From: a virus
IMG/VR virus record: IMGVR_UViG_3300017598_000095
Location: 1-5,296 of that record
Direction: 5' to 3' (one strand)
Length of the DNA stretch: 5,296 nucleotides
This document shows positions 327 to 5,056 of this stretch, piece after piece (positions within the stretch are counted from its first letter, which is position 1; each line of letters begins with the position of its first letter). A program made the position numbers and the translations under genes. The notes below the pieces were generated by a model. That model was given only the letters and a program-made list of their open reading frames with translations, ran no database searches and was not told the DNA's origin.

Positions 327-1160
327 ATGGGAGACACTAACAACGGAATGACAATGCTATCAGCAGCCAGTAATATAGGCGGGCAAATAATGGATGGAAT
401 AAACCGAAGAGGCCAAGAAAGAAGAAACTTCAGATACCAACGAAGGCTAATGGGACACCAACAAGAGAATCAAATGGCCCTAAATAGACAAGGACATGAC
501 CTAAGCTATGAAATGTGGAAGAAAACGAACTACCCCGCACAAGTAGAGATGATGAAAGAAGCAGGATTAAATCAAGGGTTAATGTATGGAAGCGGCGGAG
601 GAGCAGGAGGAACCACGCAAAGCGGAAGCGGCGGAGGAGCAGGAGGCGGAAATGTAGGAATGTCTAACATAGGAGGAAGCCAAGGCATAGGAATGCTAGA
701 ACGGAGCCAGATAGCACTAAACAAATCACAAGAAACTAAAAACATTGCGGAAGCAGATGACATAAGAGGAGGAGAAGGCACACAAGGAGAGGCGAAAATC
801 AATAAACTCAACGCAGAGATACAAAACGCAGATGCAGATACGGCATTGAAAAAGACACAAGAGCTCGTGGCGCAAAAAGACATCAACGTAAAAGAAGCAC
901 AAACGGCACTACTAAAATCACAAGATTTCAAAACACAAATGGAAGGCGCGATTAAAGAACTAGAAAAGGATAGGGGTGAAGAAGGATTCCTTCAAGGACA
1001 ATATGTAGGCAACATAATTAGCGGAATATTCGGACTAAATATGAACAATCCAGATGACAGATTAAAGGCTCAATTAGTAGTAGGAACAATGATAGGGGCA
1101 AAAATAGCAGGGGACATAAGCGGAGCACTAGGAGGGTTCCTGAGCAAACTAACAAAATAG
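327..1160 (+). CDS. VP2: DNA pilot / minor capsid protein VP2 (functional analogue of phiX174 H), 277 aa.
   Basis: It lies between the small protein and Rep, as in related microviruses. The N-terminal third contains ...YQRRLMGHQQENQMALNRQGHDLSYEMWKKTNYPAQVEMMKEAGLNQGLMYG, followed by a Gly-rich linker (SGGGAGG twice). That matches the family pattern I recall for VP2. A long charged, heptad-like segment follows (KINKLNAEIQNADADTALKKTQELVAQKDINVKEAQTALLKSQ...), then a C-terminal hydrophobic stretch (LVVGTMIGAKIAGDISGALGGFL). This suits a tube-forming, membrane-inserting pilot protein. Confidence 0.85.
   Translation: MGDTNNGMTMLSAASNIGGQIMDGINRRGQERRNFRYQRRLMGHQQENQMALNRQGHDLSYEMWKKTNYPAQVEMMKEAGLNQGLMYGSGGGAGGTTQSGSGGGAGGGNVGMSNIGGSQGIGMLERSQIALNKSQETKNIAEADDIRGGEGTQGEAKINKLNAEIQNADADTALKKTQELVAQKDINVKEAQTALLKSQDFKTQMEGAIKELEKDRGEEGFLQGQYVGNIISGIFGLNMNNPDDRLKAQLVVGTMIGAKIAGDISGALGGFLSKLTK
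591..646 (+). repeat. Perfect 20-nt direct repeat agcggcggaggagcaggagg at 591-610 and 627-646, inside the VP2 Gly-rich linker.
   Basis: Read directly from the sequence. The copy starts are 36 nt (12 codons) apart, in frame, and each copy encodes SGGGAGG. Confidence 0.95.
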
Positions 1161-1169
1161 ACATATGAT

Positions 1170-2156
1170 ATGTGCCTATATCCAAGAATAGTCAAAAACC
1201 CTAAATACAGAGCAAACAAAAAAAACGGGGGGAACATTCCCCCCGTAACAGATGAAAGAAAACTATATGTACCGATAGGGTGCCAACAATGCTTTGAATG
1301 TAAAAAACAAAAAGCAACAGCATGGAGGGTAAGAATAAACGAAGAAATAAAAGAGAACAAAAACGGCAAATTCGTAACGCTAACACTAAGCGATAATTCA
1401 ATAAAAGAACTACACAGAGCAATAAAAGACAACGAAAAAAGATTCGAAAGAATAATAGACGAGAACGGACTAAACGGATACAACCTAGACAATGAAATAG
1501 CATCAATAGCAATACGAAGATTCCTAGAAAGATGGAGAAAGAAACATGGAAAAAGTGTAAGACATTGGTTAATTACAGAAATAGGAGGAAACAGAACAGA
1601 AAGAATACATATTCATGGGATAATATGGACAGATGAAAACGAAAACGAAATACTAGAAAGATGGAAATATGGAAGAATACACATAGGAAAATATGTAAAC
1701 GAAGAGACATCAGGATACATAGTCAAATACTTGCATAAACAAGACGAAAAGCATAAAATATACGAAAGTAAAATCTTCACTAGCGCAGGAATAGGAAAAG
1801 AATACACAAACAGCATAACAGCGAAAAAACACAAATTCAAGAAAGGAGAGACCATAGAATACTATAGGGACCAGTACGGAGTAAAATACGGACTACCGAT
1901 ATACTATAAAAACAAGCTATTCACAGAAGAAGAGAGAGACCAACTATGGACAGAGAAACTAGATAATAAAAAAAGGTATATATTCGGCAAAGAGATCGAC
2001 ATAAGCAACGGAGAAGAGACATATTACAGCAGCTTAAAAGAAGCACAAGCAAAAAACAAAAGAATGGGATATGGAGACGGGGAAATAAATTGGACGAAAA
2101 GAACATACGAAAATCAAAAAAGACTCCTCAAATACAAAAAAAGATGGAAAGCGTAG
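1170..2156 (+). CDS. VP4: Rolling-circle replication initiator VP4 (HUH endonuclease, phiX174 A-like), 328 aa.
   Basis: The N-terminus MCLYPRIVKNPKY is typical of microvirus Rep. A Cys cluster CQQCFEC lies at 1281-1301. RCR motif 1 FVTLTL starts at 1371. The HUH motif HIH is at 1608-1616 (RIHIHGIIW). The two-tyrosine catalytic motif YIVKY is at 1716-1730. Confidence 0.94.
   Translation: MCLYPRIVKNPKYRANKKNGGNIPPVTDERKLYVPIGCQQCFECKKQKATAWRVRINEEIKENKNGKFVTLTLSDNSIKELHRAIKDNEKRFERIIDENGLNGYNLDNEIASIAIRRFLERWRKKHGKSVRHWLITEIGGNRTERIHIHGIIWTDENENEILERWKYGRIHIGKYVNEETSGYIVKYLHKQDEKHKIYESKIFTSAGIGKEYTNSITAKKHKFKKGETIEYYRDQYGVKYGLPIYYKNKLFTEEERDQLWTEKLDNKKRYIFGKEIDISNGEETYYSSLKEAQAKNKRMGYGDGEINWTKRTYENQKRLLKYKKRWKA
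1218..1246 (+). other. Second A8-G6-loop-C6 hairpin, embedded in Rep codons 17-26. Stem ACGGGGGG (1225-1232) pairs with CCCCCCGT (1239-1246), with loop AACATT.
   Basis: It is a perfect 8-bp stem. It is built from GGG GGG (Gly-Gly) and CCC CCC (Pro-Pro) codons, while Gly and Pro elsewhere in the window are mostly GGA/GGC and CCA. It is preceded by an A8 run, exactly like the hairpin at 226-260. The structure is certain and the function is unknown. Confidence 0.45.
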
Positions 2157-2263
2157 AAAGACTGGCGGACTGGTTCTACTATACAGGGGTAATGTCATCA
2201 ACAATAATAGTAGTAATAATAGTAATAGCCACAATATCAACAATACTAGACATACTAGAATAA
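2144..2263 (+). CDS. Putative 39-aa single-pass membrane peptide (MESVERLADWFYYTGVMSSTIIVVIIVIATISTILDILE).
   Basis: ATG 2144 overlaps the Rep 3' end by 13 nt, and the stop is TAA 2261-2263. A charged N-terminus is followed by about 20 uninterrupted hydrophobic or small residues. It falls below the ORF-track length cut-off. Nothing but the reading frame and hydrophobicity supports it. Confidence 0.4.
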   Translation: MESVERLADWFYYTGVMSSTIIVVIIVIATISTILDILE

Positions 2264-2281
2264 ACTAATAAACAAACAGAC

Positions 2282-2386
2282 ATGATAGATATAATACTAG
2301 ACAACGCAAACGAGATACTGCAATGGATACTAGCAGGAATAGTAATATTCAAAGGCATATTTCATACGCCAAAACGAAGAAAATGA
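2282..2386 (+). CDS. Putative 34-aa hydrophobic peptide with a basic tail (MIDIILDNANEILQWILAGIVIFKGIFHTPKRRK).
   Basis: ATG 2282 lies 18 nt after the previous mini-ORF, and the stop is TGA 2384-2386. It has an acidic N-terminus, a hydrophobic core WILAGIVIFKGIF and a KRRK C-terminus. It is very short, so chance cannot be excluded. Confidence 0.3.
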   Translation: MIDIILDNANEILQWILAGIVIFKGIFHTPKRRK

Positions 2387-2475
2387 AAACGACATCAAAA
2401 CAATAATTCAAATAATAATGAGAATCATTATGATAATTAAAGAATGGAAAGACTACCAAAACAAAAAAGACCAAT

Positions 2476-2536
2476 GAGCCAAAAGGCTCTGAGACGTACA
2501 CGAACAAGTTCGTATCTAACGCGCCAAGGCTTGTTC
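2476..2536 (+). other. Structured, GC-enriched non-coding block with three hairpin options. It may be a complementary-strand origin or a regulatory RNA/DNA element.
   Basis: Hairpin A is GAGCC (2476-2480), AAAA, GGCTC (2485-2489). Hairpin B is ACGAAC (2500-2505), AA, GTTCGT (2508-2513). Hairpin C is GAACAAG (2503-2509) pairing with CTTGTTC (2530-2536). B and C share bases 2503-2509 and cannot coexist. My hand count gives 35/70 G+C for 2471-2540, against 13/60 for 2401-2460. Confidence 0.45.
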
Positions 2537-2601
2537 AGGTAGGGAGCAAAAGAAGGTAACAAAGGCAGGTGTAATAGAACAACACAAAACCCAACATTCT
2601 G

Positions 2602-2844
2602 ATGATTACGGGGGAGATAAATAGAGAATTAAGGAATAAAGGGCAGCATAGGTGGGACAAGCTGGAACCAGAAGCACCTTACCACATAAAACAAGACACA
2701 TGCAGACATTGTGAAATAAGACGGAGAAGGTGGTACAATGAAAAGTTGAAATGGACAGAAACAGAATACGTCAACACGACAACAGGAGAAATACACAAAA
2801 CAATAAAATGCAAAACAAAACAAATAACAATATGGAAGCAATAG
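2602..2844 (+). CDS. Hypothetical 80-aa basic protein with a CxxC...HxxxxC pattern. It may be a small Zn-binding or DNA-binding protein.
   Basis: It is the only + strand ORF of 60 aa or more in the 2157-2830 gap, and its A-rich codon style matches the other genes. It has C34-x2-C37, H65-x4-C70 and an RRRR run. I count 18 K/R against 11 D/E. I recognise no family. Confidence 0.45.
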   Translation: MITGEINRELRNKGQHRWDKLEPEAPYHIKQDTCRHCEIRRRRWYNEKLKWTETEYVNTTTGEIHKTIKCKTKQITIWKQ

Positions 2845-3062
2845 CAGAGAAAAAAGAACAACTAATAGAAAGAACGGATATAAAAGATACACCGTTTGTA
2901 ATAATAACAACAAGAGGTAAAAGTTTCGGAACAATGGGAAGTTACCGAATAACGGAAGAATACGACACAAAAAAAGAGGTATCACAAGAATTGAAAAAAA
3001 TCACATGGAATAGAATCGTGCAAGTGATGGAAATACTAACAGAATTAAACAAAGCAAGATGA
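2832..3062 (+). CDS. Hypothetical 76-aa protein translationally coupled to VP1 (MEAIAEKKEQLIERTDIKDTPFVIITTRGKSFGTMGSYRITEEYDTKKEVSQELKKITWNRIVQVMEILTELNKAR).
   Basis: The track ORF is 2751-3062. Its first 27 codons are low-complexity N/R/Q text (MDRNRIRQHDNRRNTQNNKMQNKTNNN) overlapping ORF 2602-2844, so I prefer ATG 2832. Its stop TGA 3060-3062 overlaps the VP1 start ATG 3059-3061 (ATGA). Confidence 0.6.
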   Translation: MEAIAEKKEQLIERTDIKDTPFVIITTRGKSFGTMGSYRITEEYDTKKEVSQELKKITWNRIVQVMEILTELNKAR

Positions 3063-5056
3063 AAACAACAATAGGAGGAGACCGCCTCGGAAGCGGCAGC
3101 AAACAGGAAATAAGTAAAAAGAACTTCGAAAGGTCAACCCACGACCTAAGTTCTAAATGGCGAAGCTCAATGGCAGCGGGAACACTAGTACCATTCATGA
3201 ACTTGGTGGCTCTACCCGGAGACAGCTTCGACATAGACTTAACAGCAGAAGTCGTAACACTACCGACCATAGGACCGTTGTTCGGAAGCTATAAAGTACA
3301 ACTAGACGTGTTCGAAGTGCCTTACAGATTATATAACGCAGGACTACAAATGAACAGGCTTGGGGTAGGAAATGACATGTCAACAGCGTACTTACCAACA
3401 CTAAACGTGTATGCACAAAATCACGCAGAAAGTGAACTAACAAACGCAGACAACGAACAAATAAATGCATCATGCATATATAAATACCTCGGAGTAAGCG
3501 GCATAGGAAGCTTAAACGAAGAAACAGAAGAGGTATGCATAAGAGCATTCAACGCAATCCCATACCTAGGGTACTGGGAAATATTCAAACAATACTACTC
3601 AAACAAACAAGAAACAAACGCATATGTAGTACACACGGCCGCACAAAGTGAACTAAAACTAGCATCAGCAAAAGTGTACACAGCCAATGTACTAGATGGA
3701 GACATGCTAACATCGGGCGAGGAAGGAGTACAGGTAGTGGAACCACAACTATCGACACAAATTAAATTCGTACTGGACGCAACAACGGTTTACTCACCAG
3801 ACCCAAACTACATAACCGTAGAATACAACGGAGACACCGTAACACTAACAGAACTATTTGCAACAACACAATGGTTAACCGATAACGAACTAGTATGTAG
3901 CGGATTCCTAGGAACGGTAGGATTAAATTGCACACTAGCATACCTATCAATGACACTACCAGTAAATTACGGAGGAGCGAGTGAGATTAAACTAAAGTCA
4001 TTCAGACTAAGCAACATCGACAAAATGAGGGAGAAGATATTACAGCACCCATTCGACTCGGGAGCATTCAATATCTCAAATCAATTCCAACCATATACAC
4101 TACCACACGTAACAAATGGAAGCGGACCAAATACAACAAGGTCATGCCAATATACACAGGAAGGTCTAGCAGTAAAAACGTATCAAAGTGACCTATTCAA
4201 TAACTGGATTGATACAGAATGGATAGACGGAACAAATGGAGTAAACGCAGTAACGGCAATTAGTACAACTGGGGACTCATTCACACTCGACACACTTAAC
4301 CTAGCTAGTAAAGTATACAATATGCTCAACAGAATAGCAGTAAGCGGAGGAACATACGATGATTGGCTAGACGCAGTATACGCACACGACAGAAGCAAAC
4401 AAAAAAGTTCACCAGTATATCACGGAAGCCTAATAAAAGAGCTACAATTCGAAGAGGTAATTAGCCAAGCGGAAACGCAAGACGGGTTAAATACAAACCC
4501 ACTAGGAACACTAGCAGGAACAGGAAGGTTAAACCAAAAAAACAAAGGAGGCTACATAAAAATTAACGTAGATGAGCCATCACAAATTATTGGAATAATT
4601 TCACTAACACCGAAAATCTCATATTCACAAGGAAACGATTGGAGCGTAAACCTAAAGACGTTCGATGACTTACATAAACCACATCTGGATGCAATAGGGT
4701 TCCAAGACTTAATAACGGAACAAATGTCGCACACGGACACAACATTCAGCGCAGATGGTGAACATGAATTCAGAAGTGCGGGAAAGACACCCGCTTGGAT
4801 TAACTATATGACAGACGTAGACAAAGTATACGGAAACTTCGCAGAAGCAAACAAAGAAAGGGACATGGGACTAAATAGAAAATATGACATCGCAGAAGAT
4901 GGAAGAATCGAAGACCTAACGACATACATAGACCCTGCAAAATTCAATAACATCTTCGCACAAACAGACCTCAGCGCACAAAACTTCTGGGTCCACATCG
5001 GGAAGAAAATAACAGCAAGGAGAAAAATGTCGGCAAAAGTGATTCCGAACCTATAA
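3059..5056 (+). CDS. VP1: Major capsid protein VP1 (phiX174 F-like jelly-roll capsid), 665 aa.
   Basis: It is the largest ORF. The N-terminus GGDRLGSGSKQ...FERSTHDLSSKWRSSMAAGTLVPFMNLVALPGDSFDIDLTAEVVTLPTIGPLFGSYKVQLDVFEVPYRLY matches the Alpavirinae-type VP1 signature I remember. Later blocks YWEIFKQYYSNKQE and GGTYDDWLDAVY are also typical of microvirus capsids. Confidence 0.95.
   Translation: MKTTIGGDRLGSGSKQEISKKNFERSTHDLSSKWRSSMAAGTLVPFMNLVALPGDSFDIDLTAEVVTLPTIGPLFGSYKVQLDVFEVPYRLYNAGLQMNRLGVGNDMSTAYLPTLNVYAQNHAESELTNADNEQINASCIYKYLGVSGIGSLNEETEEVCIRAFNAIPYLGYWEIFKQYYSNKQETNAYVVHTAAQSELKLASAKVYTANVLDGDMLTSGEEGVQVVEPQLSTQIKFVLDATTVYSPDPNYITVEYNGDTVTLTELFATTQWLTDNELVCSGFLGTVGLNCTLAYLSMTLPVNYGGASEIKLKSFRLSNIDKMREKILQHPFDSGAFNISNQFQPYTLPHVTNGSGPNTTRSCQYTQEGLAVKTYQSDLFNNWIDTEWIDGTNGVNAVTAISTTGDSFTLDTLNLASKVYNMLNRIAVSGGTYDDWLDAVYAHDRSKQKSSPVYHGSLIKELQFEEVISQAETQDGLNTNPLGTLAGTGRLNQKNKGGYIKINVDEPSQIIGIISLTPKISYSQGNDWSVNLKTFDDLHKPHLDAIGFQDLITEQMSHTDTTFSADGEHEFRSAGKTPAWINYMTDVDKVYGNFAEANKERDMGLNRKYDIAEDGRIEDLTTYIDPAKFNNIFAQTDLSAQNFWVHIGKKITARRKMSAKVIPNL

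Follow-up and report, generated by a model that had tools for sequence, protein, structure and literature searches.

Two small selected orphan genes behind Rep as plausible lysis candidates in a microvirus genome

The window analysed here, a 5296-nt stretch of the IMG/VR virus record IMGVR_UViG_3300017598_000095, represents one complete circular microvirus genome of 5175 nt with a terminal redundancy of 121 nt, and immediately downstream of the gene for its VP4-like replication initiator (Rep) lie two very short open reading frames (ORFs), here denoted A and B, that encode hydrophobic peptides of 39 and 34 amino acids (aa). Comparative sequence evidence indicates that both are genuine genes, and no other plausible candidates for host lysis are apparent in this genome. 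The possibility that we tentatively place first, at somewhat less than an even chance, is that A and B form a host-lysis module that operates without a muralytic enzyme, with A acting like the single-gene lysis (Sgl) peptides of other small phages. A non-lytic role at the membrane is nearly as likely, and several less probable explanations are weighed below together with the evidence that bears on each of them.

Coding status of A and B

ORF A, which encodes MESVERLADWFYYTGVMSSTIIVVIIVIATISTILDILE, extends from an ATG at 2144 to a TAA at 2261-2263; it begins 13 nt inside the Rep gene, in the -1 frame relative to Rep, the TAG codon of which occupies positions 2154-2156. ORF B, which is fully intergenic, runs from an ATG at 2282 to a TGA at 2384-2386 and encodes MIDIILDNANEILQWILAGIVIFKGIFHTPKRRK. 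The coordinates and translations of both ORFs, including the overlap of the start of A with the Rep stop region, had been given in a first-pass annotation made from the sequence alone and proved exact; A is also called as a gene in contigs of the Joint Genome Institute (JGI), and B, with an identical peptide, is so called in six contigs.

Are these ORFs, then, anything other than chance frames? The same annotation had worried that ORFs of this length could arise by chance and had noted that Ile and Val codons are common in A/T-rich sequence. The latter caveat does not apply to this genome, the plus strand of which consists of 44% A and only 16.5% T: given that hydrophobic codons require T in the second position, hydrophobic ORFs are unexpected on such a T-poor strand. 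The former worry was refuted by shuffling, with plus-strand ORFs of at least 30 aa scored by their maximal Kyte-Doolittle hydropathy over 17 residues (KD17) in 2000 dinucleotide-preserving shuffles of the genome and, additionally, in 5000 local shuffles. None of the 2000 shuffled genomes reached a KD17 of at least 2.8, the level of A, and 0.5% reached at least 1.7; among the local shuffles, none yielded an ORF with a KD17 of at least 2.8 and none yielded two ORFs with at least 1.7. In the actual genome, the capsid gene aside, A and B are the only plus-strand ORFs of at least 30 aa with a KD17 of at least 1.5. In the proposed frames, A has a codon-usage log-likelihood of +24.9 bits and B one of +13.8 bits, with negative values for both in the other two frames; the third codon positions of both ORFs are A-rich, like those of the real genes of this genome, and the start contexts, A-rich and devoid of a Shine-Dalgarno motif, are the same as those of Rep, the capsid gene and the other genes.

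The collections searched contain a single related lineage, consisting of an IMG/VR contig (L001) and its JGI equivalents, with a Rep that is 92% identical to that of the window. Look-up of the exact peptides recovered B in six contigs and A in two, and both ORFs are intact in all six; these contigs represent two sequence types, and conservation is testable only at about 7% nucleotide divergence or at more than 40% protein divergence. The two types differ by 8 substitutions in A, of which 7 are synonymous and one is non-synonymous (I22V, Ile to Val), and by 5 in B, all of them synonymous and including a CTA to TTG change in a leucine codon; contig L006 has one further synonymous change in B. 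The proportion of synonymous sites that differ (pS) amounts to 0.25 in A and 0.23 in B, compared with 0.30 for Rep and 0.25 for the 80-aa gene located farther downstream, and the corresponding non-synonymous proportion (pN) is 0.011 for A and 0.000 for B (binomial P = 3e-4 and 5e-4 for A and B, respectively, and 2e-7 for the two together, with 12 of the 13 substitutions synonymous). When read in the other two plus-strand frames, the same substitutions are almost all non-synonymous. The sole indel of the region, 4 extra nt in the sister type, falls within the spacer between A and B, so that the two ORFs, which share a frame in the window type, are in different frames in the sister type. Because this indel alters their relative frame, A and B must be two cistrons, and a single read-through product is ruled out. 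Taken together, the synonymous excess, the restriction of the only indel to the spacer, codon usage, start contexts and shuffles lead us to conclude that, on the comparison of two sequence types only, A and B are true coding genes maintained by purifying selection. Conservation of the frames in relatives, which the first-pass annotation had set as a check, was thus borne out in all six contigs of the two types but does not extend to the next relatives, with Rep identities of 50-59%.

The least probable of all the explanations considered here is that A and B are chance frames after all, or that their conservation is due to an antisense gene or to a nucleic-acid element. The ORFs are short indeed, and an antisense ORF of 59 aa (2179-2358) shares the third positions of A and, over part of A, likewise displays 7 synonymous changes to 1 non-synonymous change. 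Yet none of the 2000 shuffles reproduces the ORFs, the recognisable genes of the genome are all on the plus strand, and the synonymous sites of A and B evolve as fast as those of Rep and hence are under no extra constraint of the kind expected of a nucleic-acid element. The antisense ORF itself was rejected as a gene: stop codons fall within A and B in this frame, the 4-nt indel breaks it in two, and over B it carries 2 non-synonymous changes.

Predicted membrane association

The product of A has an acidic, aromatic N-terminus (MESVERLADWFYYTG), an apolar core of 20 residues (residues 16-35, nt 2189-2248) and an acidic C-terminus (DILE). Given a maximal KD17 of 2.85 and a summed Hessa dG over 19 residues of about -1.6 kcal/mol, the peptide is predicted to insert into the membrane, and AlphaFold2, run on the single sequence, models residues 2-38 as a continuous helix with a predicted local distance difference test (pLDDT) score of 97. 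All these predictions clearly point to a single-pass transmembrane helix and agree with the membrane-spanning core of roughly 20 residues that had been noticed at first reading.

The position of A relative to Rep brings up the possibility that A is expressed as an extension of Rep, by -1 slippage on a run of seven A residues (2136-2142), such that a fraction of Rep would be anchored in the membrane. The frame of A, which is the -1 frame of Rep, is open over 2090-2263, that is, from well upstream of the A start codon, and the A7 run, which is followed by a G, ends 1 nt 5' of the ATG and is invariant in both types of the lineage. We nevertheless consider such a fusion very unlikely, given that the run, when read in frame with Rep, does not form a canonical X XXY YYZ heptamer, that A possesses its own ATG with an A-rich leader that, like those of the other genes, lacks a Shine-Dalgarno motif, and that Lys-rich, A-rich C-termini are common among the Rep proteins of this clade.

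The product of B consists of an acidic, amphipathic N-terminal helix (MIDIILDNANE), a hydrophobic stretch of 16 residues (ILQWILAGIVIFKGIF) and a basic tail (HTPKRRK, nt 2363-2383). Here the maximal KD17 is 1.73 and the Hessa dG over 19 residues is +6.7 kcal/mol; AlphaFold2, again with the single sequence, predicts a helix for residues 2-27 (pLDDT 83) and a disordered tail. The layout described by the first-pass annotation, with its acidic N-terminus, hydrophobic core and KRRK tail, is present, but a membrane span is only marginal by the Hessa value, and B is best regarded as a predicted amphipathic or hydrophobic helix with a marginal transmembrane segment.

The basic end of B might alternatively suggest a small virion-associated DNA-binding protein similar to J of phiX174 or VP8 of gokushoviruses. 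In favour of this, B is small, with a hydrophobic part and a basic end (KRRK), and several relatives carry, in the same genomic slot, ORFs for amphipathic helices with long basic tails. The four clustered basic residues of B, however, and its net charge of about +2 are far below those of J-type proteins, and no homologue of B was found among the relatives although a packaging protein should be conserved; we assign this explanation a probability lower still than that of the Rep fusion.

Searches for homologues

The lineage is isolated. A megablast search of INPHARED with the whole genome gave no match, and in the databases searched, with 5.8 billion proteins, there are no relatives of Rep at 62-90% identity, the next ones being at or below 61%. 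The farther relatives available for comparison are 80 metagenomic loci, mostly aquatic, with Rep 50-59% identical, and four GenBank genomes. No homologue of A or B was detected by phmmer among all ORFs of the 80 relatives, or in Pfam, PHROGs and NCBIfam, with no Pfam match at E <= 0.1 (one insignificant match to a viral fusion glycoprotein aside). In particular, neither protein E of phiX174, G4 and alpha3 nor MS2 L nor any further family proved homologous in these searches. At E <= 10, tblastn against 50,697 phage genomes returned nothing for A and three chance matches for B, and a phmmer search of 1.84 billion representative proteins with A returned A itself and a low-complexity match in a repeat protein of 4897 aa. 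Degenerate DNA motifs for the segments DWFYYTG and EILQWILAGIV, searched in IMG/VR, identified the known relative and one chance match in a contig of 34 kb. By these sequence searches, A and B are lineage-specific orphan genes and not conserved core genes of microviruses.

The slot downstream of Rep in related microviruses

Could the relatives provide any clue to function in the absence of homologues? We surveyed 56 loci with a readable interval between Rep and the capsid gene. Two small genes are nearly universal in this interval, namely, those of the 76-aa type (DSPF..VIT..G.SFG.MG.YR.TE..ITWNRI.QV) and of the 80-aa type (W.TE.YVD.ETGEI...EC), and the segment between Rep and these two genes is variable in content, with many unrelated small genes.

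Two kinds of enzyme-like genes recur in this slot, in most of the loci with a small companion. The first, found in five loci (L035, L043, L053, L055 and L087), resembles zinc peptidases of the LAS/Hedgehog-N type; it encodes about 105-145 aa (about 105 aa in four of the five) and matches Pfam HH_signal (3.5e-5) and the structure of Sonic hedgehog in PDB (2e-5, with the H..D..H metal-ligand region aligned), along with a weak match (0.01) to an endolysin family of PHROGs. In three of these five loci (L035, L043 and L055), it is followed by a conserved hydrophobic peptide of 30-37 aa (..NWK.LL.E.LKVVIGF.AGTQ.), and, judging from the sequences, the two genes likely comprise a cassette of an endolysin and a small partner. 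The second, present in L012, L071, L082 and L002 (MH572526, 4489-4985), is a DUF5675/Tlde1-like gene (4e-12; YkuD-like, with an HxxxxxS.GC motif) that is followed by a gene for a helical peptide of 41-47 aa with an EF-hand-like D.N.DG.IGK loop at its end. A 41-aa version of this peptide differs between L071 and L082 by 6 synonymous changes and 1 non-synonymous change, a pattern of purifying selection. The partner peptides of the relatives are unrelated in sequence to A and B.

A design resembling that of A is seen in L073, where, 424-519 nt past the Rep stop, there is a transmembrane ORF of 31 aa (MESGKEGGIWTSIILALILLALVIYSVIIEK) the start and stop of which overlap the neighbouring genes. With A it shares an MES... 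beginning, a Trp at the membrane interface, a transmembrane helix and an acidic end, with no detectable homology, so that it may be a convergent analogue.

Two further observations on the slot can be mentioned. In L071 and L082, an ORF of 57-68 aa with two hydrophobic segments lies out of frame inside the DUF5675-like enzyme gene. In L039, 346-720 nt past the Rep stop, an accessory protein of 124 aa carries a lipoprotein-like signal (MRKIYIISALIIATIGC) at its N-terminus, fused to a domain that looks cytoplasmic in L061, L073 and L079.

A lysis module without an enzyme, and its main competitors

The case for lysis starts from what the genome lacks. The first-pass annotation stated that no endolysin or peptidase is recognisable, and our searches concur: the four otherwise unassigned ORFs, that is, the pilot-like, 80-aa, 76-aa and 111-aa ones, have no matches in Pfam and no lysis-related matches in PHROGs. 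Because no enzyme was found in the genome, because A and B are its sole membrane-type products in the very slot where the relatives carry an enzyme with a small peptide, and because A matches single-gene lysis peptides in size and design, we rank a lysis module first, albeit with the reservation expressed at the outset. By sequence, A and B display the features by which Sgl candidates are operationally recognised, namely, small size (39 and 34 codons, the usual span being about 25-100), a transmembrane domain in A, a common though not universal trait of the class, and an enzyme-free genome. The resemblance to known lysis peptides that had been pointed out at first reading is close in the case of LysM, a single-span peptide of 37 residues, compared with 39 in A, that lyses the host by wedging into and blocking MurJ (PMC12506998). 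Small phages typically encode lysis peptides that have no kinship with one another and evolve de novo as orphans, and a single genome may harbour several (PMC7693330). A lysis gene similar to phiX174 E is not known from microviruses other than the phiX174 group (PMC7062461), and M15-type peptidases encoded by some Microviridae, often beside an ORF of unknown function, have been proposed to be acquired endolysins (PMC3394797).

Translation of A probably starts where Rep ends, through coupling or re-initiation, and the peptide probably inserts as a single transmembrane helix. Under the lysis hypothesis, it could bind and block an integral-membrane step of the supply of peptidoglycan precursors or, alternatively, produce membrane lesions that trigger autolysis. 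The acidic N-terminus and the KRRK C-terminus of B would favour an N-out/C-in orientation or an interfacial association with the membrane, and in a lysis module B might be a second membrane-active part, be it a timing or modulating partner, a disruptor of the outer membrane, or a second, younger lysis gene. The most specific version of this scenario, in which A and B together comprise a de novo, enzyme-free two-peptide lysis system, with A blocking a step of wall precursor supply and B serving as a timing or outer-membrane helper, is rather unlikely as a whole. Translation of A and B, the topology of their products, lytic activity and any target are what we infer here.

Several considerations weigh against lysis. 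A and B are found in two close sequence types only (6 contigs), such that the test for selection involves 13-14 substitutions. In about 40 of the 56 relatives, the slot is devoid of both an enzyme and any transmembrane or otherwise hydrophobic ORF, and a strongly hydrophobic small plus-strand ORF is present in 5 of the 34 complete ones; given that most relatives have no candidate in the slot, the basic lysis function of the clade may be encoded by a core gene, which would make the slot genes optional extras. In a screen of single-stranded RNA phages, 178 of 293 candidates, nearly all with predicted transmembrane segments, had no effect when expressed (PMC7693330), and, because most candidates of this kind are inert, a transmembrane helix alone is weak evidence. 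Finally, A is acidic on both flanks, without the basic cytoplasmic tail typical of holins, and B is not a confident transmembrane segment.

A non-lytic accessory role of the two membrane peptides must be taken almost as seriously as lysis, whether it be superinfection exclusion, in the sense of keeping related phages from delivering their DNA at the inner membrane, modulation of burst size or host physiology in the manner of phiX174 K, or a takeover function that inhibits a membrane protein or a defence system of the host. The evidence from coding and membrane propensity is identical for the two readings. The slot, which holds many unrelated small genes, is an accessory region of variable content, and most relatives manage without such a gene, as expected of dispensable accessory functions. 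A precedent of sorts is the K protein of phiX174, which is small, hydrophobic and non-essential and the gene for which overlaps the 3' end of phiX174 gene A. Moreover, most of the small-phage candidates with predicted transmembrane segments turned out to be non-lytic when tested (PMC7693330). Three points nonetheless favour lysis: a non-lytic role would leave the genome without any lysis candidate, the slot in the relatives recurrently carries genes that resemble cell-wall enzymes along with small peptide partners, and, in the one gokushovirus studied, superinfection immunity maps to other functions (PMC7062461).

An improbable alternative is a holin-type pair, that is, a holin with an antiholin or regulator, that would permeabilise the inner membrane and thereby release or activate the muralytic activity of an unrecognised phage protein or of host autolysins. 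It would be in accord with the adjacency of two small genes of the membrane type, with the charged C-terminal tail of B, and with the pairing of peptidase-like genes and small hydrophobic peptides in the slot of the relatives. The holin/antiholin option, which the first-pass annotation had entertained, nevertheless lacks its defining partner: an endolysin-like gene was not found either adjoining A and B or elsewhere in the genome. Furthermore, A and B are shorter than known holins, A has no basic cytoplasmic tail, and the two are related neither to each other nor to the partner peptides of the relatives. Holins combine at least one transmembrane domain with a highly charged, basic cytoplasmic C-terminus; A is transmembrane and ends in the acidic DILE, and B ends in the basic KRRK and is marginally transmembrane.

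Comparison with known systems

Viewed against known systems, A and B are new orphan additions to the small membrane peptides of phages, and a lytic function is plausible. In phiX174, the sole lysis function belongs to E, a membrane protein of 91 aa that inhibits MraY. The lytic interpretation of A would make it similar to E as a small membrane protein with an active transmembrane helix that provides the sole lysis function of a microvirus. No homology was found, however, between E and either A or B, which are under half its length; the E gene is nested, in another frame, within gene D for the external scaffolding protein, whereas a slot of their own after Rep accommodates A and B, with A overlapping Rep by 13 nt. 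E requires a conserved proline in its transmembrane helix, and A contains no proline. The K gene of phiX174, the product of which is a non-essential hydrophobic protein of 56 aa that raises burst size and is not a lysis protein, resembles A in that both are small hydrophobic ORFs with a start codon within the 3' end of a replication gene, in another frame; no homology was detected, and K continues into gene C whereas A ends in an intergenic spacer.

As short helical, membrane-active peptides, A and B are also comparable, in design only, to holins, to cationic peptides of the disruptin type encoded by dsDNA phages and to type I toxins such as Hok and TisB: the amphipathic helix and cationic tail of B bring to mind membrane-disrupting peptides, and A is reminiscent of single-span depolarising toxins. 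What sets A and B apart from all of these is the lack of an adjacent endolysin, a dual-start motif, an antisense RNA context and homology. The lysis peptide of phage M (Lys-M, or Sgl-M) is similar to A in having a single span, an orphan sequence and nearly the same length (37 and 39 residues) in a tiny, enzyme-free phage; the two differ in that there is no sequence similarity, that phage M is a single-stranded RNA levivirus and not a single-stranded DNA microvirus, and that here there are two adjacent peptides. The cassettes of M15/LAS peptidases of Microviridae occupy the same neighbourhood, between VP4/Rep and VP1, and often sit beside a small ORF of unknown function (PMC3394797), whereas the genome in the window has the small peptides only, with no peptidase found.

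The release of progeny by microviruses outside the phiX174 group is an acknowledged gap, with some of these viruses carrying acquired peptidases (PMC7062461, PMC3394797), and the present genome offers a clean test case, with two tiny genes under selection, no enzyme found and a syntenic link to the peptidase cassettes. Should the two-peptide lysis system prove real, no lysis mechanism would have been defined earlier for a microvirus other than those of the phiX174 group, and this one would possibly be directed at an unexploited target. Should either peptide alone be lytic, it would be a microvirus-derived addition to the set of small "protein antibiotics" and could reveal a target in the cell wall or membrane. 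Should neither be, A and B would be orphan membrane micro-proteins that are kept in a genome of 5 kb, and the question of lysis would shift to the core genes.

Genome organisation and further observations

The features of the window are listed in Table 1.

Table 1. Genes and other features of the microvirus genome in the window
Feature	Position	Strand	Basis of assignment
Pilot-like protein	327-1160	+	PHROG pilot families
Rep, VP4-like replication initiator, 328 aa	1170-2156	+	PF23343 on the called gene; tblastn to 604 microvirus records
ORF A, 39 aa	2144-2263	+	
A-rich non-coding spacer between A and B, 18 nt	2264-2281	+	
ORF B, 34 aa	2282-2386	+	
Conserved non-coding region 3' of ORF B	2387-2601	+	
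80-aa ORF	2602-2844	+	
76-aa ORF	2832-3062	+	
Major capsid protein	3059-5056	+	
111-aa ORF across the genome junction	5067 to 227	+	

All eight gene starts (327, 1170, 2144, 2282, 2602, 2832, 3059 and 5067) have A-rich leaders without a Shine-Dalgarno motif, and several overlap the preceding stop: A overlaps Rep, the 76-aa gene overlaps the 80-aa gene, and the capsid gene starts in an ATGA overlap. The combination of start/stop overlaps and A-rich leaders is compatible with translational coupling. Because none of the gene starts has a Shine-Dalgarno motif, a host of the Bacteroidota type is possible, and we infer that such starts are compatible with a host from this phylum. A scan for sigma-70 promoters did not exceed the shuffled expectation, the sigma-70 model probably not being applicable to the host, and Rfam gave no match near the A/B region.

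The non-coding region 3' of B differs from its counterpart in the sister lineage at 5 of 215 positions (2.3%), compared with about 25% of the synonymous sites in the flanking genes, and 2466-2565 is identical between the two types. It contains two hairpins, GAGCC-AAAA-GGCTC (2476-2489) and ACGAAC-AA-GTTCGT, with a z-score of -3.1 for the fold of the single-stranded DNA; by blastn, the distant relatives have no clear counterpart. This region may be a replication origin, a priming site for the complementary strand or a regulatory element.

The protein encoded by the adjacent 80-aa gene, which has no family in Pfam or PHROGs, contains a CxxC pair (C34 and C37) and one more cysteine close to its end; members of its own family, recognisable by the pattern quoted above for this type, occur in nearly all relatives.

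Terminator-like sites number 15 in the window, compared with a shuffled expectation of 4.2. A G6...C6 hairpin at 234-252 (GGGGGGCTAACAACCCCCC), followed by a T-rich tract, is located just past the 111-aa ORF and resembles a plus-strand terminator. A second G6...C6 hairpin, at 1225-1246 (GGGGGGAACATTCCCCCC) and preceded by A8, lies within the conserved NKKNGGNIPP motif at the start of Rep.

The lineage is seen in five JGI samples only. The sister-type contigs L007 and L010 (samples 3300021152 and 3300021153) stem, according to bioRxiv 10.1101/2022.04.11.487978, from metagenomes of Candidatus Thiomargarita nelsonii populations on the Namibian shelf; two of the samples carrying the lineage, Ga0216254 and Ga0216256, have this origin.

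The two types of the lineage, otherwise 90-95% identical, diverge sharply in the C-terminal half of the pilot-like protein (690-1169, compared with L001 and L007), where identity drops to 26-57% with many gaps, and the whole protein measures 277 aa or 331 aa depending on the type; this sequence pattern suggests a hypervariable or recombined module.

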